From an uncultured Bacilli bacterium (GTDB lineage Bacteria; Bacillota_I; Bacilli_A; RF39; UBA660), in contig CALVXM010000001.1 of the NCBI GenBank assembly GCA_944371305.1, positions 39,600-103,599 on the forward strand: a stretch of 64,000 bases of DNA, given 5' to 3'. Under the pieces are notes generated by a model. That model worked only from the letters and a program-made list of their open reading frames with translations. It was not told where the DNA came from and searched no databases. Both the position numbers and the translations under genes were made by a program. Each line of letters starts with the position of its first letter. Within the stretch, counting starts at the first letter, position 1. Below, piece by piece: positions 4,626 through 58,927 of this stretch.

Positions 4626-4724
4626 TTCTTTTAATATTTTTAATTATTTTCAAATTAAATTGGACTTTATCATTCAATTTTCAAATTAAATTACATATTC
4701 TATATATAGAATTGAGGTGATTTC

Positions 4725-5564
4725 ATGGGAAACGATATATATCAAAATGCCATGTGTAAAATTGAACAAGATCAAAAATGTAAACCTTCTTGTGTAACTT
4801 GCGTCGGAGCAACCGGACCTACTGGGCCGACCGGACCTGCTGGTCCAACTACAGTAGCAGTTGGACTTACAACTACTGGTATACCGGGTTCTAACGCTAC
4901 TGTTACCAATGCAGGAACCAATACTAATGCTATTTTCGATTTTGTTATTCCTGCCGGTGCGACCGGTGCAACCGGGCCGACTGGACCTACTGGACCACAA
5001 GGTATTCAAGGTATTCAGGGTATTCAAGGAATAGCGGGAGCAACTGGAACCCCTGGAGCGACTGGAGCGACTGGACCTACTGGGCCTGCCGGAGCATCTG
5101 GTGCAACTGGAGCGACTGGACCTACTGGACCAACTGGACCTAGTATTACACCAACATTTACAATAGGGACTGTTTCAACTGGAGCCCCTGGTTCTACAGC
5201 TACCGCTTCTATAACTGGTACATCTCCTAATTTCTTCTTAAATTTAACTATACCTGCTGGAGCGACTGGACCTACTGGAGTATCTGGCGCTACTGGACCT
5301 ACTGGACCTGCTGGAGCATCTGGCGCTACTGGACCTACCGGGCCTGCTGGAGCATCTGGCGCTACTGGGCCTACCGGACCTGCTGGAGCATCTGGTGCTA
5401 CTGGACCTACTGGACCTGCTGGAGCATCTGGTGCTACTGGACCAACTGGACCTGCTGGAGCATCTGGTGCTACTGGACCTACCGGACCTGCTGGAGCATC
5501 TGGTGCTACTGGACCTACCGGACCTACTGGACCAACTGGACCAACTGGACCTACCGGACCATAA
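4725..5564 (+). CDS. Collagen-like triple-helix repeat protein (Gly-X-Thr repeats); no signal peptide and no C-terminal globular domain
   Basis: Long runs of [16 protein letters not shown]; short non-collagen N-terminus with Cys cluster [10 protein letters not shown]; ends in GPTGPTGP then stop and an intrinsic terminator. Confidence 0.75.
5275..5526 (+). repeat. Tandem 36-bp repeat (about 7 near-identical units, ggagcatctggYgctactggRccWacYggRcctgct) encoding [12 protein letters not shown]
   Basis: Direct reading of sequence; units differ only at synonymous third positions; explains spurious antisense ORFs 4686-5027 and 5244-5579. Confidence 0.85.
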
Positions 5565-5600
5565 TATATAGCAATTCATAAACTTTTAAAGATTACCTTA

Positions 5601-5645
5601 AAGACTCTATTGATTTTGATAGAGTCTTTATTATATTTTTTTTAA
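5601..5645 (+). terminator. Rho-independent terminator of collagen-like gene
   Basis: Hairpin aagactctat-tgattttg-atagagtctt followed by T-rich run. Confidence 0.7.
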
Positions 5646-5673
5646 TATTATACATACTAATGATGGTGATATT

Positions 5674-6360
5674 ATGAAACCAATAATTGGAATAGTAGGA
5701 ATTGATGAAGTAAAAAATGACAAAAATATTATTTGTATATTTGAAAATTATCGAAAAGCAATCATAAAATATGGTGGAACACCTATTTTAATCCTTCCTC
5801 CCAAATTAATCGATTATCATGACTTTAAACCCAAAGATACGGGAAAATTAACTAAAGATGACAAAGAAATTATAATAAATCAATTAAATTTATGTAATGG
5901 CATCATTATTCCAGGAGGATCAAGAAGATTTGAACATCATAATTTTATCTGCGATTACTGTAATAAAAAAAGAATCCCCATTCTAGGAATTTGTATGGGA
6001 ATGCAAACTATGTGTAATTATGACAATAACAATCAAAATGTTAACATCAATAATATTTTTCACAATAGTAAAAAAAACTATAAACATTTAGTTACAATTG
6101 AAAAAAATTCTAAATTATTTGATATATTGAAAGAAGAAAAAATCTTAGTTAATAGTTTCCATGACTATAAAGTTGAAAATAGCGGTTCTTATAAAGTAGC
6201 GGCAACTTGTAACGATGTTATTGAAGCAGTTGAAAAAAAAGAAGACCCCTTTAATATTGGGGTTCAATGGCATCCTGAAAAAAACTATGATAAAGATTTA
6301 AATAGTAATAAAATCTTTACCGAATTTATTAGGTGCGCTAAATCATACTATCACGAGTAA
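5674..6360 (+). CDS. Class I glutamine amidotransferase-like hydrolase, peptidase C26 / gamma-glutamyl hydrolase (PuuD-like) family
   Basis: Nucleophile elbow ILGICMGMQ, C-terminal VQWHPE His motif, 228 aa. Confidence 0.75.
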   Translation: MKPIIGIVGIDEVKNDKNIICIFENYRKAIIKYGGTPILILPPKLIDYHDFKPKDTGKLTKDDKEIIINQLNLCNGIIIPGGSRRFEHHNFICDYCNKKRIPILGICMGMQTMCNYDNNNQNVNINNIFHNSKKNYKHLVTIEKNSKLFDILKEEKILVNSFHDYKVENSGSYKVAATCNDVIEAVEKKEDPFNIGVQWHPEKNYDKDLNSNKIFTEFIRCAKSYYHE

Positions 6361-27146: not shown

Positions 27147-28436
27147 ATGAAAAAAAACAAATTTGTTATATCTACCATTATATTAATAATCGGTGGTTTT
27201 ATAACTAAAATCTTAAGTATGATTATTAAAATAGTTATGACCAGATTAGTTGGAACTGAAGGAATCGGTTTATATATGTTAGTAAATCCCACCTTTATGC
27301 TTTTTATTGCAATATGTACTTTAGGAATGCCGACCGCTATTTCTAAATTAGTATCCGAAAATAAAAGAAATAATAAAAAACTGGTAACATCTGCTTTGGT
27401 AGTATCTATTAGTATCAATGTATTTATTATGCTTTTTGTTATTTTAGCAGCTAAAATGATTGCTAATAACTTATTACATGAAGAAAGAGCTTATTACTCG
27501 TTATTAGCTATTGGATTGGTTTTACCTTTCATTTCAATATCAGGAATTCTAAGAGGATATTTTTTTGGTAAACAAAAAATGATTCCTCATGTTTTATCAA
27601 ATATTACTGAAGATGTCACAAGATTAATTAGTATTTTATTATTCACACCGTTTTTTTTAATTAAAGGTTTAGAATTTGCCGTTGCTTTCTTAGTTTTATC
27701 TAATATCATTAGTGAATTAACTTCAATTATAATTTTATTCTTCTTCCTTCCTAAAAACTTTAAATTAACTAAAAAAGATCTCACTCCCAGTCTAAATAAT
27801 ATGAAAGATATTTTAGAAATAAGCTTGCCTACTACAGGTAGTAGATTGATTGGAACTATTGGAATGTTTTTTGAACCGATTATTTTTACTTATTTTTTAT
27901 TAAAATTAGGCTATTCTAATCAATATATTCTTAATGAATATGGTATTTTAAATGGTTATGTTATGCCTCTTATATTATTGCCGTCATTTTTTACAGGAGC
28001 AATATCACAAGCGCTACTTCCTATCGTAAGCAATGGTTATGCTAATAACCATATAAAATATACAAGGAGTAAAATTAAACAAGGAATATTTTTTTCTCTA
28101 CTGATAGGTATTCCCGCTACCATTATTTTTGTTTTAGTTCCTCAAATACCTTTAAAACTTATTTTCAACACTGATCAAGGGATAAATTATATTAAAATTT
28201 TAGCTCCGATTTGTCTACTTCATTATATTCAATCACCATTAACCTCTTCATTACAAGCGATTGGAAAATCAAGTGAAGCCATGAAAGATACCTTAGTTGG
28301 TATGATTTTAAGAACTATCAGTTTAATTATCTGCTGTTATCTTAATTTAGGAATTTATAGTTTAATCGTCGCTAGTAGCATTAATATAATATACGTTACT
28401 ATTGCTCATTTTATCAAAATCAAAAAATTAATATAA
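27147..28436 (+). CDS. MOP-superfamily flippase (polysaccharide biosynthesis protein / SpoVB-MurJ-Wzx-like)
   Basis: 429 aa, about 12-14 TM helices, family-typical N-terminal KIL.MI.K.V..R.VG.EG.GLY. Confidence 0.7.
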   Translation: MKKNKFVISTIILIIGGFITKILSMIIKIVMTRLVGTEGIGLYMLVNPTFMLFIAICTLGMPTAISKLVSENKRNNKKLVTSALVVSISINVFIMLFVILAAKMIANNLLHEERAYYSLLAIGLVLPFISISGILRGYFFGKQKMIPHVLSNITEDVTRLISILLFTPFFLIKGLEFAVAFLVLSNIISELTSIIILFFFLPKNFKLTKKDLTPSLNNMKDILEISLPTTGSRLIGTIGMFFEPIIFTYFLLKLGYSNQYILNEYGILNGYVMPLILLPSFFTGAISQALLPIVSNGYANNHIKYTRSKIKQGIFFSLLIGIPATIIFVLVPQIPLKLIFNTDQGINYIKILAPICLLHYIQSPLTSSLQAIGKSSEAMKDTLVGMILRTISLIICCYLNLGIYSLIVASSINIIYVTIAHFIKIKKLI

Positions 28437-28476
28437 GTTACTATTTTTTCATATAATTTTATGAGGTCGATTAATT

Positions 28477-29403
28477 ATGAATATAATAGATAAAAATTTC
28501 AACGAATTGGTTAATAAAATTAAAAACATGTCGCAAGATGACATTTATGTCAATATTCAAAATAAATTTCATCACTTACCACAAGACATTAAGGATTCAT
28601 TAGAACAATACTTTAATTTATTTAATTATTGGGGAAAACTAAATGTCTCTTCAAATAACTACCAAGAATTGTTTGAAAAATCACAAGTATTATTCGAACA
28701 TATCGATGATTTTATTTGGTTATATAATAGACTGGAAGATTATTCTTCTAAAAAAATATTATTTGGAATTTTAAATAATTGGTACCAATATGATTTTATA
28801 ACTTTAAAAGAATGTATGAATAATCCTTTTAAACATTATTTTGATCTAGATATTATTCCTAATTGCGATAATGAAGTTTTTGTCGATTTAGGTGCTTATA
28901 CTGGTGATACAACTTTTGATTATATTAATACTTATCAAAATTATAAAAGAATCTATTGTTATGAAATAACTAAAGAAACCCTTTCGATTTTAAAAGACGT
29001 TCTAAGTAATTATAAAAATATTGTTTATAAAAATAAAGCTGTTTCCGATCAAAATAATATCTTATATTTAAGCGAAAGTTCTGTTAATGCATCAGCTAAC
29101 CAAGCATTAGAAATCGGTACCATTGAAATAGAAAGTGTTAGTCTAGATAACGATATCTTAGAAAAAATCGATATGATTAAAATGGATATAGAAGGATCTG
29201 AATATAAAGCATTAAAAGGTGCTAAAAATCATATTATTCACGATAAACCAAAGTTGTTAATTTCAGTTTATCACAATAATGATGACTTGTGGCAAATTCC
29301 TAAATTAATTGATGAGTATAACCAAAATTATAAATTTTATTTAAGATATTATGGTAATAATATCTATCCAACTGAAATAGTGTTACTTTGTGTACCACAA
29401 TAA
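28477..29403 (+). CDS. FkbM-family SAM-dependent methyltransferase
   Basis: VDLGAYTGDTTFDY SAM-binding segment and IKMDIEGSEYKALKG FkbM signature. Confidence 0.7.
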   Translation: MNIIDKNFNELVNKIKNMSQDDIYVNIQNKFHHLPQDIKDSLEQYFNLFNYWGKLNVSSNNYQELFEKSQVLFEHIDDFIWLYNRLEDYSSKKILFGILNNWYQYDFITLKECMNNPFKHYFDLDIIPNCDNEVFVDLGAYTGDTTFDYINTYQNYKRIYCYEITKETLSILKDVLSNYKNIVYKNKAVSDQNNILYLSESSVNASANQALEIGTIEIESVSLDNDILEKIDMIKMDIEGSEYKALKGAKNHIIHDKPKLLISVYHNNDDLWQIPKLIDEYNQNYKFYLRYYGNNIYPTEIVLLCVPQ

Positions 29404-29437: not shown

Positions 29438-30507
29438 TTAACCTATTCTAAAAGCCGGAGCAACACCATTAATATCAATAGCATGAGGATCATTCCAATT
29501 GCCATCAAGCATAATACGGTAAAAAGCAGTATTAAGGTGAGCAAAAGCAGAACGTGTCCACCAATAACTTTCAAGTTCTTGATGTCTTTTTATTGCTCCT
29601 TTATAATTACTAGTGCTTACATTATTCATTTCATAATAATCTAATTGTCTTGTATTGTTATCGCTCGTATCATTACTTATAATATTACTTGTTCCATTTT
29701 TACCATAGATTTCTTTCGTAGCTAACAAATATAATTTGTCGTTAGTTATAAAATTTTCTAAATCTCCACTACCATGACTAGATATTACTTTTGTATCTAT
29801 TATTACATTTTTTAAATCTTCCGGTAACGAATTATATATATCATTTTTTAAAAATATATATAGTTCACTTGCAGGATATCCCCCTATATTAGTTAAAGTT
29901 GAATTTATTTTACGTAATGTGATTATATCAACAAATTCAATCACAAATCCACAAGCAGTTTGCGAAAATTCATTATTACTACATTCAGATGGCGTTGTAA
30001 TATTGGCTATTCTTACCGTATATGTACCAGCATATTCTCCAGTTAAAGTTACTTCTTTTGTATCTCCTACTTTATATTTACTCATATCCCCATTTTTTAC
30101 GGCATTAGCTATTGTTTTCCATGAATCATCTTTAAATGATACTGGAGTATGATTTTTACATTCTTCATCATAGCGAAATACATATTGATTATTAATTTCA
30201 TCCCATTTATATAATACACAACCTGTCATTTCTTTATTAGTCACTGGATTTATCGTCTCAATTTCTAAAAAGCCACTACTTTTTAATTCATTTAAAAATA
30301 TCGCATTTTCTTCGGTTGAATATCCTAAACTATTTTGAGTACTATAATTATGAGCTGCTTCTAAAATACTATCAATACTTCTTTCTAATGCTGCTTGCTT
30401 ACTATTTTCGATTGATTTATCGACTATTGGAAAAGTTATTAAAGCTATTATTCCAAGTATTATTATGACTGCTAATAATTCAACTAATGTAAATCCTTTT
30501 TTAACAT
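29438..30507 (-). pseudogene. Prepilin-type N-terminal domain protein (pilin-like family member C, about 355 aa if corrected) interrupted by a 1-nt frameshift in an A6 run at codon 4
   Basis: ATG 30507 gives MLKKDLH-stop; shifting one base after the A6 run (plus-strand T6 at 30497-30502) gives ..KKGFTLVELLAVIIILGIIALITFPIVDKSIENSK... continuous with ORF 29438-30244; perfect promoter TTGCTT-N17-TATAAT upstream. Confidence 0.6.
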
Positions 30508-30604: not shown

Positions 30605-32062
30605 TTATAAGAACATCATCGCTAACGTTAAAATAAGAATATTGACAACTGCAATCGTAACGACAATCTTTAAAGCAAATTTTACCCAAGTTGCATATTC
30701 TACTTTAGCTACTGCAAGTCCACCCATAATAGCGCCACAAGTTGGTGTAATTAAGTTAACTAAACCGTTAGCAGCAACTATAGTCATAACAGTTCCTTCA
30801 ACACTATATCCTAATTGATAAGCAACTGGTCCTACGATAGGTGCTGATAAAGTAGCCAAACCAGAACTAGATGGAACTAAAATAGATAATAGAACATGAA
30901 TAACATAGTTAAATGGTGCGAATATGATAACTGGAACATTTTTAAGCATCTCAGCAGCATTATAAATTATGTAATTATCTAAATATGTGCTTTGCATTAA
31001 AACTGAAGCTCCACGAGCAATAGCGATAATTAAGATTACTCCAACCATATCGTCAGCGCCATCGATAAATGTATCAACAAATTTTTTCTCTCCAGTTCTA
31101 TTAACAAAACCAATAATAACTGACATAATTAAAAACCACAAAGCTGCTTCATAGAAATACCACTGTCCTAAAGGCATTCCTGTTAACCAACCAGTAAATT
31201 TAGGAAATATATCAATACCAAATTCTTCCCAAGGAATAAATCCAACAATCATCACAACAAATGTCAAAGCAAATAAACATAAAGTAATTTTTTGTTTTTT
31301 GGATAATTTAACATTATCTAATTCAGTATTAACATGACTTCCGTATTCTTCTTCCGCATTTTTTCTTTCTCTTAACGATAAGAAAGTTGAACCTTTTTTC
31401 TTAATAACTCTTTTAGCATAAGCCATTACAAATAAAATAGAAATCAATAAAGTTGTCAGCCATAAAGCTACACCTATACCAATTATAAGTCCTTGATTAA
31501 CAGCAATTCCTTCAGGCAAGGCGCTAACTGCTGCTCCTACCGCAAATGGATTAATAGTTGATCCTAAAACACCTGAACCTGCTCCTAATAAAACAACTGC
31601 TGATGCTACCAAGGTATCCATACCAGCCATTACCATCGTTGCAGATAATAAAGCATAAAAACCAACAGTTTCCTCAAGCATACCATAAGTAGTACCACCA
31701 ACTGAGAAAATAAACATTAAAATTGGTATTAATATTAACTCTTTACCTTTTAGTTTTTTAACCAAAACTTTAATACCAGTTTCCAAAGCTTCAGTTCTTG
31801 CAACAATAGCTAAAAACCCGCCTAGAATAAGAACGAAAATACAAACATCAATCGCATTTTCAAATCCTAAAATAGGAGACAAAAGTACATCTGATAATGT
31901 CGCTCCTACAACACCACTACCATTGACAATTTCTTCAACGCCTTCAGCGTTAGTAACAAATTCTGCTTTAGGTAGAAAATGTGAAACAATTCCTAAAGCA
32001 AATATTAATATGAAAATTATCGAAAAAGCGGTTAGAAAACCTTTTCTTTTTTTCTTTGCCAT
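30605..32062 (-). CDS. YfcC-family membrane carrier (putative arginine/ornithine antiporter, ArcD-like by context)
   Basis: 485 aa, about 11-12 TM helices, basic N-terminus MAKKKRKGFLTAFSIIF typical of YfcC family; last gene of the arc operon. Confidence 0.65.
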   Translation of the reverse strand: MAKKKRKGFLTAFSIIFILIFALGIVSHFLPKAEFVTNAEGVEEIVNGSGVVGATLSDVLLSPILGFENAIDVCIFVLILGGFLAIVARTEALETGIKVLVKKLKGKELILIPILMFIFSVGGTTYGMLEETVGFYALLSATMVMAGMDTLVASAVVLLGAGSGVLGSTINPFAVGAAVSALPEGIAVNQGLIIGIGVALWLTTLLISILFVMAYAKRVIKKKGSTFLSLRERKNAEEEYGSHVNTELDNVKLSKKQKITLCLFALTFVVMIVGFIPWEEFGIDIFPKFTGWLTGMPLGQWYFYEAALWFLIMSVIIGFVNRTGEKKFVDTFIDGADDMVGVILIIAIARGASVLMQSTYLDNYIIYNAAEMLKNVPVIIFAPFNYVIHVLLSILVPSSSGLATLSAPIVGPVAYQLGYSVEGTVMTIVAANGLVNLITPTCGAIMGGLAVAKVEYATWVKFALKIVVTIAVVNILILTLAMMFL

Positions 32063-32063
32063 A

Positions 32064-33005
32064 TTATTCTCCCTTTCTAACGATTACTGTGCCAGTTTTA
32101 CCTAACAAAGCATCCTTGATTTTACCTAATGAGGTAATAATTGCTTGTCCATCTTTTTTATGTGATACATAATCTATACATGCTTCTATCTTAGGAAGCA
32201 TACTGCCTGCTTTAAATTCATCATTCTTCATATATTCTTTTGCTTGTTTAACTGTTAAAAAGTCTAATTTTTGTTCGTTTTCCTTATTAAAATTAATCGC
32301 TACTTTTTCGACAGCTGTCAATATTAAGAAAATATCAGCGTTCAGATCAATCGCTAGTTTCGCGCTAGTTTTATCTTTATCAATAACCGCATCAACTCCA
32401 ACTAGGCTATTACGTTTTTTAATAACTGGTATGCCTCCACCACCTGCTGCTATAATTACATTATGTTTATTGCTTAAGTCCCTAATAACCTTACCCTCAA
32501 CTACCTTTAATGGATTAGGACTAGCAATAACTCTACGGTAACCTCTTCCAGCATCTTCTTTAAATACAAAACCTTTTTCTTTAGTTAATTCATCTGCTTC
32601 TTTTTTTGTATAAAAGTTGCCAATTGGTTTAGTTGGATTAGAAAAAGCTTCATCTTTACTATCAACTAAAACTTGAGTTATAACAGTAATACAATTTTTA
32701 CGCATATTTCGTCTAAATAACTCTTTTTGAATTGATTGCTGCAAATGATATCCAATATATCCTTGACTCATGGCGCCACATTCAGCAAATGGCATATCAG
32801 GAGTATCGATTTCTTCATGTGCTACTTCCATTGCTAAGTTGATCATACCCACTTGAGGTCCATTACCATGAGTTACAACAATATCGTAACCATCTTCGAT
32901 AATATCAACAATATTTTTAGCGGTACTCTTGATTAAATTTAATTGTTCACTAGGGGTATTACCTAAAGCATTACCCCCTAGTGCAATGACGATTTTTCTT
33001 TTCAT
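32064..33005 (-). CDS. arcC: Carbamate kinase
   Basis: N-terminal [11 protein letters not shown], amino-acid kinase fold, 313 aa. Confidence 0.9.
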
Positions 33006-33991
33006 TTATATAAAGTCGCGAACATAATAGCTTTAATGGTATGTAATCTATTTTCAGCTTCCTCAAAAACTCTTGACTGTTTTGATTCAAAAACTTCATT
33101 AGTTACTTCCATTTCTGTCAAACCAAATTTTTCATGAATTTCTTGACCAATCGTTGTTTTTAAATCATGGAATGATGGTAAGCAGTGTAGAAATATTGCA
33201 TTTGGATTAGCAATACTCATTAGTTCTTTGTTTACTTGGTAAGGTTTTAATAGATTAATTCTTTCCTCCCAAATACTTGCATCTTCACCCATTGAAACCC
33301 ACACATCAGTATATAATACATCAGCATTTTTAACAGCTTCTTTAGGATCTTCAATAAATTCAATTGTCGAATTATATTTTTTAGCAAACTCTTCACATTG
33401 TTTTACTAATGGTTCTTCAGGTACTAATTGTTTTGGACTACAACAAACAAAGTTAATTCCCAATTTAGAACAAATAACCATTAAAGAATTAGCGACATTA
33501 TTTCTGCCATCACCTAAGAAAACTAATTTTTTACCTCTAATTTCACCAAATTCTTCTTTAACAGTCATAATATCTGCTAACATTTGAGTTGGATGAAATT
33601 CATTAGTTAAACCATTCCAAACTGGAACTTTAGAATACTTGGCTAATTCTTCGACGATTTCCTGATCAAAACCACGATATTCAATGCCATCATACATTCT
33701 CGATAAAACACGAGCCGTATCTTCGATACTTTCTTTTTTGCCCATCTGTGAACCAGTTGGTCCTAAGTAAGTAGCTCCCATACCTAAATCATAAGCTCCA
33801 ACTTCAAAAGCACATCTTGTTCTAGTTGAATCCTTTTCAAAAAGTAAAACAACATTTTTACCTCTTAAATAAGCATGTGATTTTTTATTTTTTTTCTTCT
33901 CTTTGAAAAGAATAGCAAGTTTAATTAAATAAGTAATTTCTTCTGGTGTGTAATCGATTAGTTTTAAAAAATCACGACCATAAAAATTCAT
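33002..33991 (-). CDS. arcB: Ornithine carbamoyltransferase (catabolic)
   Basis: STRTR carbamoyl-phosphate motif, HPTQ, HCLP motifs; 329 aa. Confidence 0.9.
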
Positions 33992-33992
33992 T

Positions 33993-35234
33993 TTACATCT
34001 CCCTTTCTAATGGCATACTCATACATCTTGGTCCACCACGTCCTCTTGATAATTCAGCACTTGGCATTTCCAAAACTTTAATACCATGATTTCTTAATAC
34101 TTCATTTGTTTCATTATTTCGATCATAGACAACAACAACTCCAGGAGCAATACATAAAGTGTTTGAGCCATCATTCCATTGTTCACGTTCAGAAGCAATC
34201 TTATCGCCTCCCGCACAAGGAATAAGTGTTATTTGACGACCTAAATAATGTGACAAAATATTTTCCAACGAATCATTAATCTCTTTAACATTCAAATCTT
34301 CATCACTATCAGGTACATCGCCTTCAGTTATTTCAAACACTTGAAGAGTTTCCATAATTCCAGGATGATATGTAAATTTATCGTAATCTATTTGTGTAAA
34401 TACGGTGTCTAAGTGCATGAAAGCACGACTATTAGGAATGTTAAAAGCCAATATTGTATCAATCTTACAATCCTTATCTTTAAATAAATTTTTAGCAATT
34501 TGATCAATAGCTTCAGGACAAGTTCTTTGTGAATAACCAATAGCTAAGATATGTTCATTCAAATTTAGAACATCACCGCCTTCAATATGATGAGGAAGAT
34601 AGCGATCATAGTAAAGAGTCAATTGATCTTTATATTCTGGATGATATTCAAAAATATATTCGGCATAGATTGTCTCTCTATTTCTTGTAACTGAATACAT
34701 CTTATTTAAAGAAACACCATGCCCAATACTAGCAAAAGGATCTCTTGTAAAATATAAGTTAGGCATTGGTTTAGCCAAAAATTTTGATTCTTCACTAACT
34801 AAATCAACTAATGATTTTTCAATTTCTCTTTTTTCCCGATCTAATTCACCAATTTGAATTCCTTCCATTGTTTTTAAAACTAGTTCTTTAGGATCCTCAA
34901 TATTATTTAGATATTCATATACTAAATTCTTATATTTAGGAGTCCTAATTCCTGCTTCATAGATAAATTGTTTTAAGAACTTTTCTTTAATACCAGGATT
35001 AAACATTAAAACCTCAGCCATCAAATCTTCCAAATATACTACTTCGATACCGTTTTCCTTTAAAAGATTTGCAAAATAATCATGTTCTTTTTGTGCCACT
35101 GGTAGATAAGGAATATCATCAAATAATAACTCAGATAATGTATCAGGTGTTAAATTTAATAATTCTTTACCAGGGCGATGCAATAAAACTTTTTTTAATT
35201 TTTTAATTTCACTATCAACTTTAATAGCATACAT
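33993..35234 (-). CDS. arcA: Arginine deiminase
   Basis: 413 aa; C-terminal catalytic region [15 protein letters not shown] (Cys nucleophile). Confidence 0.9.
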
Positions 35235-37453: not shown

Positions 37454-38956
37454 TTAGTTCATTACTATATAATAATTACCATATATATAAAATTTAAACT
37501 CGCTTATATCTACTTTATCAATGTTTTCTTTTTGAACAATATAAATACTTTCTTTATCTAAATTTTTAATATCTTTTATTTCTTTTATATCAGTATTTAA
37601 AACAGCATTATAAGTGTCTATATAAATTTTAAATCCTCCATCATTGTTAAAATTCAAATAATATTTTTCTTTGTCAATATTTTTAACAAATAAAATTCCT
37701 TCTTTTAAACCATTACTGAAACACCCACTATGGTTAATTTCATCATAATAACTGTTGTAAAAAAATACATTATAGCTTACAAATAAAATAATATAAATAA
37801 AACTAATTAAAACCATAAACGTTCTTTTATATTTTATCTTTTTATAAATTAAGTATAAACCATAAACAGTTAAAAATAATAAAGGATACCAAATAATATT
37901 TAGACGATTAATATTAGTTCCATTAATAAATACTCCAACAAAAAGACTTAAAAATGTCCATAGAATAAATAGTTTTATTCCGATATTTTTTTCCTTTTTT
38001 ATAAAATAATAAATTATACCAATAAATATAAATATAATTGAAATGTGATAAGTTGTTCCAAAAATATTAGTGGCATTCCATTCTAAATAATCATATTGTT
38101 TAAAAATAATATTGAATAAAGTTTTTAGGTTTTCTAAAAGTTGAAAAATAATATTATTAGAAAATAATAGCATATCATCAGTTCTAGTTGAATTCGGAAA
38201 ATATTTTATCGTAAATATTCCCAAATTAATACTTTCATTTATTTTAAAGAAATTAATAATGTACATAATTAGCAAAGGTGTGAAAGTAACAAAATAAATT
38301 AAGATACAAATAATTAAGTCTTTTAAAGTTACTTTTTTATTTATAAATAAATATATAGCACTTATTAAAAGAAAAAATGGAACAAAATAAATTGCTATAC
38401 CATACGTATACATAGTAAGGCCAAAAAATATCATTGATAAGTAAAGAAAAATTTTTTTATCAGTTATCCCACGATACAATAAATATATAGATATTAAAGC
38501 AAAATGAGGAAACATATTACAATCAATTGACCATTTTGATTGTAGTATGTGCCAAGGACTAATTGCCAAAAAAGCCAAAGCAACTAAAGCAACTTTTTTA
38601 CTTTTAAATATCCTTTTAGCAAAATCATAGAAAATAAATAAACTAATTAAGCTAATTAAAATCATTGGCAATCTAATTGAAAATAAAGAAAAACCAAATA
38701 TTTTAATGAAAAAAGCCATAATATAAGCAAGCATTACACTTTGTCCAGCAAATCCCCAAGCTTCTAGGTAAACAGGAAAAGAAACCCCAGTTAAGTCTTT
38801 CCCTGTTTCAGCAATTGCCTTAGCATTTAAAGCAGTCATTGATTCATCAACATTTAACTCTAATAAATCAGGCCATTGATAAACTCTAACTAAAATAGCG
38901 ATTAATAAAATAGTTATAAATAAAATTTTAAAATAATTTTTTTTAATAAATTTCAT
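37454..38956 (-). CDS. GT39/GT83-type (PMT/ArnT-like) polytopic glycosyltransferase
   Basis: 500 aa, more than 10 TM helices, first extracytoplasmic loop with DE motif (NVDESMTALNAK). Confidence 0.55.
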   Translation of the reverse strand: MKFIKKNYFKILFITILLIAILVRVYQWPDLLELNVDESMTALNAKAIAETGKDLTGVSFPVYLEAWGFAGQSVMLAYIMAFFIKIFGFSLFSIRLPMILISLISLFIFYDFAKRIFKSKKVALVALAFLAISPWHILQSKWSIDCNMFPHFALISIYLLYRGITDKKIFLYLSMIFFGLTMYTYGIAIYFVPFFLLISAIYLFINKKVTLKDLIICILIYFVTFTPLLIMYIINFFKINESINLGIFTIKYFPNSTRTDDMLLFSNNIIFQLLENLKTLFNIIFKQYDYLEWNATNIFGTTYHISIIFIFIGIIYYFIKKEKNIGIKLFILWTFLSLFVGVFINGTNINRLNIIWYPLLFLTVYGLYLIYKKIKYKRTFMVLISFIYIILFVSYNVFFYNSYYDEINHSGCFSNGLKEGILFVKNIDKEKYYLNFNNDGGFKIYIDTYNAVLNTDIKEIKDIKNLDKESIYIVQKENIDKVDISEFKFYIYGNYYIVMN

Positions 38957-46925: not shown

Positions 46926-50034
<3,109 letters not shown>

Positions 50035-53658: not shown

Positions 53659-54306
53659 CTATTTTTTAATTAATACTTTAAAATTATTATCAATTTTATT
53701 TAAATATAATTTAATCTTTTTATAGCTTCTTGTTAAAATACGACTAACGTAAGACGCTGAAATATTTAATATTTCACTAATTTGTGCTTGGGAATAAGAC
53801 GGACTATTTATTCCAAAATATAACATAACAACTCTTTTTTCTAAATCACTTAAAACTATTAATGACTCAATTACTTCTTTTTTTAATTCTTTATCAATAT
53901 AATTATCTTCAATACTAATATCATCGAGCAATAAATCCATAAATTCAAAATCATCATCAATATTATTATTTAAACTACTAACATTTTCTAATTTCTTATT
54001 TTTTCTTAAAAACATCAATATTTCATTTAAAATACAACGCGATGCATAAGTGGCAAACTTAACTTTATAAGAAACATTATAATTATCGACAGCTTTAATT
54101 AATCCGATACAACCAACTTCAAATAAATCATCGTATTCTATATAATACAAAGATTCATAAAAAGACTTATAATGAATTTTAACAAGACTCATCACTAATC
54201 TTAAGTTGGATTCAATTATTATATTGCGACTTTCAATATCACCATTTTGATATTTTAAAAATAATATATTTAATTTTTCTTCTTCAATCGGTTCTGGTAA
54301 AAACAT
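53659..54306 (-). CDS. Sigma-70 family RNA polymerase sigma factor (regions 2 and 4 only, ECF/sporulation-like size)
   Basis: Region 2 ..LIKAVDNYN...FATYASRCI; region 4 HTH ..SQAQISEILNISASYVSRIL; 215 aa. Confidence 0.7.
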   Translation of the reverse strand: MFLPEPIEEEKLNILFLKYQNGDIESRNIIIESNLRLVMSLVKIHYKSFYESLYYIEYDDLFEVGCIGLIKAVDNYNVSYKVKFATYASRCILNEILMFLRKNKKLENVSSLNNNIDDDFEFMDLLLDDISIEDNYIDKELKKEVIESLIVLSDLEKRVVMLYFGINSPSYSQAQISEILNISASYVSRILTRSYKKIKLYLNKIDNNFKVLIKK

Positions 54307-54316
54307 ATTAATCTCC

Positions 54317-54733
54317 TCATGCCATAATTGTCGATAACGTAACTTTCCCTGTTAACCAAAAATAATCATTATTAATAAAGTCACAAACAAAAATATTTTT
54401 ACTATACGTTTTAAAATCTTCTAATAAGTTATTATAGTTTATACCTCTTATGATAATTCTTGTATGTTTTAATTCAACAAAGGTCTTATCAACATAAAAT
54501 GTTCTTTCATTATCAAGTTTATATTTTTTATTTAAATAATATTTGAGATTAAAAATATTTATTCGTTCACATAGTTGACTATATAACGAAATGCCATAGT
54601 TAAAATCTTCTTTCATATAATATAATTTCTTCAATATATCGAATAAAAATAATGGATTTTTTTGATAATAATCATAATATTCTTTTTTAATAACAAAAAG
54701 ATTATATTCTTTCATCGGTATCACCCAAATCAA
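54317..54733 (-). CDS. Hypothetical protein (138 aa), upstream of and co-directional with the sigma factor
   Basis: ORF only. Confidence 0.35.
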   Translation of the reverse strand: MIWVIPMKEYNLFVIKKEYYDYYQKNPLFLFDILKKLYYMKEDFNYGISLYSQLCERINIFNLKYYLNKKYKLDNERTFYVDKTFVELKHTRIIIRGINYNNLLEDFKTYSKNIFVCDFINNDYFWLTGKVTLSTIMA

Positions 54734-57943: not shown

Positions 57944-58927
57944 TTAAAAGGAATATGCACGGACGTCGGTGGTATTCGTCGGGTTGTTGTAGAAGTTGCC
58001 ATAGCCATAGACGCGACGAACGTAAGACGAACTATATCTATTTCCTAACCAAAAATAATCTTTTATATCTAAATATGAATTAGTTCCACCTGCTCTTACA
58101 TATTGATTTTCATCTAATAATCCTACTTTTTTAGTTACTGTTATTTCATCGACATCTGTATATATTCCTACATTAAATGTATTGTCTTTTATATTATTTT
58201 GAATGCTACCATCTAAACTATTATAAAAATATTCATTTAACCAATTATTGATATAACTTGCTTCATATTCTTCTTCTGTTTCCCATACATCATAAGCTGG
58301 ACTAATTGCTGTCAATGGTTGTTGAGATACCAATAATAATGTATTCTCTTCTGTATCAATTTCTACTATTCGCCAATGATGACCCCCATACCATAAATAA
58401 TTATTAGTAACTTCGTCATTTGTACCTTTATAATAATATATATTACTATTTGTTTCATCTTGCACTAATCCTTTGGTTCCAACTTGTTCTAATAATGTTG
58501 ATATTAAATTTGTCTCTGGGTCCTCTGGTAGCTTGACACCACATTCTTCTTCATCAATGGAAAAACTTCCATCACCACATAATGTAAATTTATGAGTATT
58601 ACTATTGACTACTAAATTTGTTACTTTACCATTACTGTATTCTACTTCTAATACTTCGGCATTTCCTAAACTTACCATCTTACTTACTTCTTCAGTTGTT
58701 ACTCCATCGGCACATATATCTTCTGTTCCATTTAATTGATTTTTTACTTTACTAGTAGCACAGTAATTATTAATGCCACTTAATATCATACTTGCTTCTG
58801 ATTTGCCCGCACTCTTTCTTGCATCATCAATGACATTTAAGATAATTGGTGTGGCTATCAAAGCTATTATAGCTAATATTATAATAACTGCTAATAATTC
58901 TATTAACGTAAATCATTTTTTCTTCAT
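57944..58927 (-). pseudogene. Prepilin-type N-terminal domain protein (pilin-like family member D, about 327 aa; N-terminal 120 aa about 85% identical to member B plus a roughly 170 aa C-terminal extension) carrying an in-frame TGA at codon 5, exactly the Gly(-1) position
   Basis: ATG 58927 after a GAGGAG Shine-Dalgarno: ATG AAG AAA AAA TGA TTT ACG TTA ATA GAA TTA TTA = MKKK-stop-FTLIELLAVIIILAIIALIATPIIL...; paralogue B has TGC GGA at the same place. Confidence 0.6.

Follow-up and report, generated by a model that had tools for sequence, protein, structure and literature searches.

The closest described counterparts of the gene analyzed here are BclA of Bacillus anthracis and Bacillus cereus and the BclA1-3 proteins of Clostridioides difficile, which combine GPT-rich collagen with a repeat number that varies between strains and which lack a signal peptide. 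Going by the title of a 2003 study of Sylvestre and coworkers, polymorphism of the BclA collagen region reportedly changes the length of the nap filaments. The number of triplets that BclA's collagen-like region contains is strain-specific (PMC10470788). In C. difficile the three bclA genes depend on sigma-K, whose consensus, as in the sigK P2 promoter, combines the -10 sequence CATATAAT with the -35 sequence AC (PMC3789822), and bclA3 adjoins the gene for SgtA, a 358 aa glycosyltransferase with a GT-A domain plus TPR that adds beta-O-GlcNAc to threonine in GPT repeats (PMC7157674). Here we describe a collagen-like gene at positions 4725..5564 (+) of a 64,000 nucleotide stretch of contig CALVXM010000001.1 from an uncultured RF39 bacterium of the Bacilli (the window hereafter). 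With a probability of roughly 0.55, the gene would encode an O-glycosylated fibre that is made in the mother cell and displayed on the spore surface.

The gene starts with an ATG at 4725, 5 nt behind a Shine-Dalgarno sequence that can be read directly from the DNA (GAGGTG, 4714..4719, +), and the open reading frame (ORF) encodes 279 aa plus stop, exactly as in the original prediction, which had been made from the nucleotide letters. A Pfam scan returned the Collagen model as sole match (E = 1.6e-24) and no BclA_C / TNF-like domain (PF18573), and an exact-sequence look-up of the 279-aa protein gave no record. The 59 G-X-Y triplets make up 63% of the protein, so that its earlier description as consisting almost entirely of triplets was too strong. 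GPT (20 copies), GAT (16), GPA (8) and GAS (7) are the main types, with Pro or Ala in the X position of 53 of the 59 triplets and Thr in the Y position of 36. The G+C content of 53%, against 26% for the whole window, is expected from the codons for Gly, Pro, Ala and Thr, and the same repetitive composition gives rise to two antisense ORFs (4686-5027 and 5244-5579) as by-products. No second collagen-like ORF is present in the window. In the first 50 aa the Kyte-Doolittle mean over 12 residues does not exceed 0.88, and this polar N-terminus agrees with the predicted lack of a Sec signal peptide; the protein has neither an LPXTG motif nor a transmembrane segment. The stop codon directly follows the final GPTGP and is succeeded, as had been noted, by an intrinsic terminator (5599..5648, +), of which the hairpin (5599-5630, 13-14-bp stem, followed by a T-run) folds with -15.3 kcal/mol (z = -4.65; none of 200 shuffled sequences folded equally well). 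The ribosome binding site, the terminator, the purely synonymous differences between the repeat units and the identity of the non-array protein in other assemblies (both described below) leave hardly any doubt that this is a real gene under selection.

The protein has a modular architecture. An N-terminal leader (aa 1-27, 4725..4805, +), modelled by AlphaFold2 (AF2) as a helix at aa 4-18, ends in a cluster of cysteines (C11, C19, C23 and C26) that lies directly against the first triplet. It is followed by collagen segment 1 with 5 triplets (4806..4850, +), beta module 1 (M1, aa 43-77, 35 aa, 4851..4955, +), which is matched by a hidden Markov model (HMM) of the module built here, collagen segment 2 with 21 triplets (4956..5144, +), corresponding to a length-variable region in other family members, beta module 2 (M2, aa 141-178, 38 aa, 5145..5258, +), where conservation within the family is highest, and collagen segment 3, a C-terminal tail of about 33 triplets (5259..5561, +). 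Of the two non-collagen modules the original prediction had picked out M2 and left M1 unmentioned. In the AF2 monomer (overall predicted local distance difference test score, pLDDT, of 60) each module forms a three-stranded beta unit with a pLDDT of about 76-82; the strands span residues 43-52, 59-62 and 68-76 in M1 (pLDDT about 76-79) and residues 144-153, 160-166 and 169-177 in M2 (pLDDT about 81). The collagen parts were not modelled, as is expected for a single chain.

In T4 fibritin and collagen III, a small beta unit (the foldon) or adjacent cysteines (the cystine knot) nucleate and register three chains against a triple helix. The modules of the present protein always abut in-phase G-X-Y runs ('...IPxG-xxG') and are its sole folded elements, from which we infer that each module trimerises and registers the adjoining triple helices. 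The cysteine cluster, in turn, may anchor or cross-link the fibre and so staple its base. The likeness to the foldon and the cystine knot is a functional analogy, as there is no match in sequence or fold; the module measures about 37 aa with three predicted strands, and the cysteine cluster is N-terminal. A Foldseek comparison of the AF2 model with the PDB gave no match at E <= 0.001, no Pfam model matched M1, M2 or the leader even at E <= 10, and the leader alone matched no PHROG family. Sequence matches of the single modules to the PDB (triplets of BclA and FN3 monobodies, E about 0.1-1) were discarded as being at chance level. A profile search with a 48-column module alignment returned only proteins of up to 84 aa, most of them fragments.

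When species-representative genomes (one genome per species) were scanned with the M2 profile, 525 or more loci were confirmed, most of them in metagenome-assembled genomes (MAGs) of uncultured gut 'Bacilli'. The 80 best loci, with a module 2 identity of 72-90%, belong almost exclusively to MAGs of uncultured gut organisms filed as 'Bacilli bacterium', 'Tenericutes', 'Mycoplasma sp. CAG:776', Candidatus Onthousia or Erysipelotrichaceae, and include complete chromosomes of 1.3-1.5 Mb. A protein search returned thousands of collagen matches, and among the best 120, 37 are short two-module proteins of 155-229 aa. From an alignment of 38 proteins and the module HMM a common plan became apparent: cysteine-cluster leader, short GPT run, M1, collagen of variable length, M2 and end, to which the window protein conforms with its collagen tail as the end. 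The leader takes the form 'xxAxxKIxxDxKxKPxCC', again a predicted helix and cysteine cluster, and the family consensus sequences are ATITVGTTTTGxPGTxAxVTNxGTxxNxILxFxIPxG for M1 and TPTLTIGTVTTGxPGTEAxAxITGTxPNFVLNLTIPQG for M2, the latter with a mean column identity of 83% in 21 family members.

The 37 two-module relatives end 3-13 aa past M2, typically with GPTGPAA*. A collagen tail is missing from most of the two-module relatives of the protein search and is found, with a length of 82-208 aa, in other MAG homologues; the homologue of Mycoplasma sp. CAG:776, for instance, is likewise a 279-aa protein with two modules and a collagen tail. The genome loci comprise proteins with two modules and a short end, two modules and an 82-208-aa tail, a single module and a tail, and 84-aa minis, so that a C-terminus made of triplets, with no globular domain behind them, is a recurrent natural state. 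Judged from proteins that share a leader and differ in collagen length (P0002/P0027, P0005/P0013/P0077 and P0024/P0051/P0062), variation in repeat number is a property of the family as a whole. Two members with the same leader and M1 tie the family to bona fide BclA-like proteins: P0006 carries a BclA_C domain (PF18573), and P0003 ends in what is by inspection of its sequence a BclA-type domain. Very short versions of about 60-84 aa, consisting of the leader, few triplets and module 2, were found both on fragments and on long contigs (an 84-aa ORF from about 7856 in L040; P0121-P0240). Taken together, these comparisons make it very probable that the gene represents an unannotated family of cysteine-leader / beta-module collagen-like proteins of gut Bacilli.

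The C-terminal tail consists largely of a 36-bp tandem repeat (5257..5560, +), which Tandem Repeats Finder described as 8.4 copies with 92% matches and no indels. It contains six consecutive perfect 12-aa units (5286-5501), behind which comes a terminal (GPT)n run that has a periodicity of 9 bp. As all six units encode the identical 12 aa, the nucleotide differences among them are synonymous, as the first reading of the sequence had stated. One isolated copy of the unit lies in the central collagen segment (5064-5099), from which the C-terminal array may have been seeded.

To compare alleles, contigs of the same species were reached via the exact sequence of the downstream GATase/peptidase-C26 neighbour protein (5674-6360), which was matched on at least 21 metagenome contigs. 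These share the gene order ruvA ... fmt, lemA, priA, collagen gene, GATase, yqeH, yqeG ... mraY, murF. Ten of the places (L090-L099) were inspected at the array, and three of them are gap-free. The window allele of 279 aa and 6 units was joined by alleles of 255 aa with 4 units (L090), 270 aa with 5 units, one added terminal GPT and one V-to-A change (L091), and 291 aa with 7 units (L093). A further, longer array (L092) contains at least 5 plus at least 6 units around a 100-N scaffold gap, and the alleles of the other six places (L094-L099) are partial, as the contigs end within the array. The 534 nt 5' of the array differ by 0-1 single-nucleotide polymorphism between the same-species contigs, and the non-array protein sequence is identical in four other assemblies. 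The order of the synonymous unit variants is not constant between alleles, which shows that distinct alleles are present and not one array that collapsed to various degrees. Thus, both the length polymorphism between strains and the assembly trouble that the original prediction anticipated were encountered, and the 36-bp array is, with near certainty, a variable number tandem repeat (VNTR) whose copy number differs between strains. All length changes are multiples of 3 bp, so that the repeat tunes the length of the protein and cannot switch the gene off. Short-read metagenome assemblies are also documented to break in the array, and a copy number taken from a single assembly, that of the window included, is not to be trusted.

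Every same-species copy that reaches the 3' end terminates with GPTGPTGP*, and in the window the distance from the stop codon to the next gene is only 109 bp, terminator included. The possibility of a truncated gene was ruled out by these identical 3' ends and by family members that end soon after M2 or in long collagen tails; the lack of a C-terminal domain, already suspected, is genuine.

Upstream of the gene, a putative -10 box (CATATTCTA, 4694..4702, +) of the sigma-K/E type CATAnnnTA is located 31 nt 5' of the ATG. Among the genes of at least 60 aa in the window that have a Shine-Dalgarno sequence and an ATG, the collagen gene is the only one with this motif at -35..-20. In a first scan CATAnnnTA was present 24-31 nt before the ATG in 26 of 36 unique family regions and in 18 of 471 control genes. 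When the scan was repeated with the transferase genes (see below) removed from the controls and a slightly wider interval, the motif was found in 27 of the 36 family genes versus 7 of 450 controls (p = 2.9e-30). The motif tops an unbiased scan of 12,288 gapped patterns, and beyond it the upstream regions of the family have almost nothing in common. The promoter of P0006 has only a near match, one base off the motif (AATAGAATA at -30, L183 7971-7979). Many family promoters also harbor a recurrent 'xACTTT' element (e.g. TTTGAACTTTGCA) 15-28 nt upstream of CATAnnnTA; it occurs in the window at 4662-4671 (GGACTTTATC) and upstream of L010, L013, L041, L042, L049, L051, L059 and L078, and may be a regulator site.

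A candidate for the cognate sigma factor is encoded in the same window (53659..54306, -). This protein of 215 aa, with the N-terminus MFLPEPIEEEKL, has SigK (147 bits) and SigE (137 bits) as best NCBIfam matches, and both alignments begin at profile position 26-28, indicating that it lacks a pro-sequence. Immediately upstream of it, separated by a 10-bp gap, lies an ORF for a small protein of 132-138 aa without family match (54317-54733), and the two are apparently part of one operon.

The homologues are solitary genes among housekeeping genes, outside prophages. Their sole strongly recurrent neighbour is a GT2+TPR glycosyltransferase of 357-366 aa, which was found within three genes in 43 of 68 relatives' loci; CATAnnnTA precedes 14 of these transferase genes as well. 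In size and domain order, the two features by which they are likened, the transferase corresponds to SgtA. In the P0002 species (L001 4990-5757, L002 860-1627 and L003 903-1670) the collagen-like gene has an ADP-ribosyl-exotoxin-like gene (PF03496) directly upstream and the GT2+TPR gene directly downstream. The P0006 gene is followed by a holin-like gene (Phage_holin_4_1, locus L183).

The comparison with exosporium and phage-fibre families, which had been recommended, proved relevant in both directions. With BclA and BclA1-3 the protein shares the GPT-rich collagen, the strain-variable repeat number, the missing signal peptide and the sigma-K-type promoter motif, and an SgtA-like GT2+TPR gene adjoins many of its relatives, as at bclA3. 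Unlike BclA, it has neither the TNF/C1q-like C-terminal trimerisation domain BclA_C nor an exosporium leader of the LIGPTLPPIPP type, which is present in the Bacillus matches P0017 and P0025; instead, it has a cysteine-cluster leader and two 37-aa beta modules that interrupt the helix, and in the window species the variable repeat is C-terminal to the last folded module. As the two defining features, C-terminal domain and leader, are absent, the protein is not a member of the BclA family, and it is best read, by analogy, as BclA-like in function.

We therefore favor a model of the following kind. The protein would be synthesized in the cytoplasm without an export signal and assemble into a homotrimeric collagen-like fibre, with the two three-stranded beta modules serving as trimerisation and registration knots and the N-terminal helix and cysteine cluster holding its base. 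The sigma-K-type promoter would most likely drive its transcription in the mother cell at a late stage of sporulation, and an SgtA-like GT2+TPR transferase would O-glycosylate threonines of the GPT and GAT triplets. Deposited on the spore surface, the fibre would form a hair-like nap and so stand in for BclA while lacking the domains of BclA, and replication slippage in the C-terminal VNTR would alter its length in frame, in steps of 12 aa or, in the GPT run, of 3 aa. In agreement with this, sporulation with a reduced set of genes is predicted for RF39 and for parts of RFN20 and ML615J-28, which are orders of gut Bacilli with reduced genomes (PMC10868615).

Several observations weigh against the proposed spore fibre. 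In the window copy, no canonical -35 'AC' was found at a distance of 16-17 bp upstream of the -10 box, and the ACTTT element was rejected as a canonical sigma-K -35 because its spacing is too variable. The scores of the candidate sigma factor stay below the curated NCBIfam cut-offs (252 bits for SigK and 339 bits for SigE). In tblastn searches an SgtA-like transferase was not found in the 64-kb window, and apart from the sigma factor no canonical sporulation gene was recognised there, with most but not all of the ORFs annotated. Some related families and lineages are predicted to have lost sporulation (PMC10868615). The AF2 structure is a monomer of low confidence (pLDDT 60) that is incapable of showing a trimer, the copy numbers, in the window and elsewhere, may be too low because the assemblies were made from short reads, and the beta module is common to phage tail proteins.

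The strongest competing explanation, albeit one that we regard as unlikely, is that the lineage has given up sporulation and that the gene belongs to a leftover of its mother-cell programme. Here, a retained sigma-K-like factor would drive a small regulon of fibre and glycosyltransferase, whose product would be set free when cells lyse or be used in some other structure, of the envelope or of aggregates. For these orders, sporulation was inferred to have been lost several times independently, with partial gene sets persisting (PMC10868615), which fits this explanation, as do the small 1.3-1.5 Mb genomes of the complete relatives and the fact that the sigma factor is the sole sporulation-type gene seen in the window. 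However, M2 (83% identity) and the promoter box are strongly conserved over hundreds of species, which points to a maintained function, and outside a mother cell it is hard to see a use for a cytoplasmic fibre that has no way of being exported.

Somewhat less probable than a relic is a vegetative adhesin of the Scl/Lcl type, present on the cell surface or secreted, which would have to be exported by an unrecognised route. Like Scl1/Scl2 and the Lcl adhesin of Legionella, the protein combines triple-helix-forming repeats with length variation of the VNTR type, which is typical of such adhesins, going by the title of a report on a collagen-like adhesin of Legionella pneumophila (PMC6460258). An NCBIfam scan of the whole protein matched collagen-like adhesin models only, namely those for SclB, Lcl and SclA, with E-values of about 1e-25. 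These matches are confined to the triplet region, though, and with 89, 88 and 72 bits for NF038329, NF046116 and NF038330 they are far below the respective cut-offs of 325, 500 and 400 bits. Furthermore, Scl1, Scl2 and Lcl possess a globular V domain besides their signal peptide, and either LPXTG or an outer-membrane anchor; all of these are absent here along with any transmembrane segment, and the promoter motif is of the sporulation type, not of the sigma-A type.

An origin as phage tail-fibre gene or its domesticated remnant is more improbable still. The protein resembles phage tail fibre and minor tail proteins (phrog_5073, phrog_6320 and phrog_6614) in that a 37-aa beta module alternates with G-X-Y runs; PHROG tail-fibre families match it down to E = 7e-41, M2 by itself matches minor-tail families (phrog_6614, E = 3.9e-8), and the module is present on 316 viral contigs. 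The viral copies are only 50-74% identical, compared with 72-90% for the 80 best genome loci. The phage proteins exceed the window protein several-fold in length, have large C-terminal domains and are encoded within structural gene modules: the viral module proteins have a median of 493 aa, of which a median of 201 aa follows the last module, and in just 1 of 72 is the C-terminus reached within 15 aa of that module. The window gene, in contrast, is a short chromosomal gene that stands alone and encodes a cysteine-cluster leader. It lies between priA/fmt and GATase, yqeH and yqeG, without phage genes and in the same place in all same-species contigs, and this gene context rules out a location in a prophage. 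On sequence comparison, then, the module is a building block common to phage fibres, while the short architecture with the cysteine leader is chromosomal. Least probable by far is an artefact, i.e. a non-coding or mis-assembled G+C-rich repeat: the array demonstrably breaks short-read assembly, yet reading frame, flanks and 3' end recur in independent assemblies, the units vary at synonymous sites only and the family is conserved over hundreds of species.

Other features of the window were recorded as well. A complete arginine deiminase cluster (30605-35234, -) comprises arcA, ornithine carbamoyltransferase, carbamate kinase and a YfcC-like antiporter, and is consistent with a reduced, fermentative gut organism. 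Two DUF6273 proteins are encoded at 29438-30244 (-) and 57944-58861 (-). The former adjoins an FkbM-type methyltransferase and a Polysacc_synt/MurJ-like flippase (27147-29403) in a possible surface-glycan locus; a PMT_2 membrane glycosyltransferase is located at 37454-38956. A MobV-family relaxase (418 aa) together with a large serine recombinase (622 aa, CcrB/XisF-like) at 46926-50031 (-) suggests an integrative mobilisable element. In another strain of the same species (L102 16622-21926) a different insertion with a resolvase, TnpV, a NikA-like protein and an N6/N4 methylase adjoins the Na/Ca exchanger gene.

More tentatively than for the spore-surface fibre as such, and rather doubtful as it stands, we consider a wider reading in which the family marks a retained sigma-K-driven spore-surface programme in uncultured gut Bacilli with reduced genomes and predicted sporulation (RF39-, RFN20- or ML615J-28-like), and in which the 37-aa module is a new minimal foldon-like collagen knot, internal or C-terminal and shared with phage fibres, that replaces BclA_C. 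If true, a natural collagen triple helix would be organised by tiny beta modules and not by a large globular domain, which would be of interest for the design of recombinant bacterial collagen. The hypervariable and probably glycosylated tail would be a candidate locus for strain typing and might determine how spores adhere or which antigenicity they have. The family and its CATAnnnTA box would further provide an easily scored genomic marker of cryptic sporulation, and hence of the mode of transmission, in abundant uncultured gut Bacilli.

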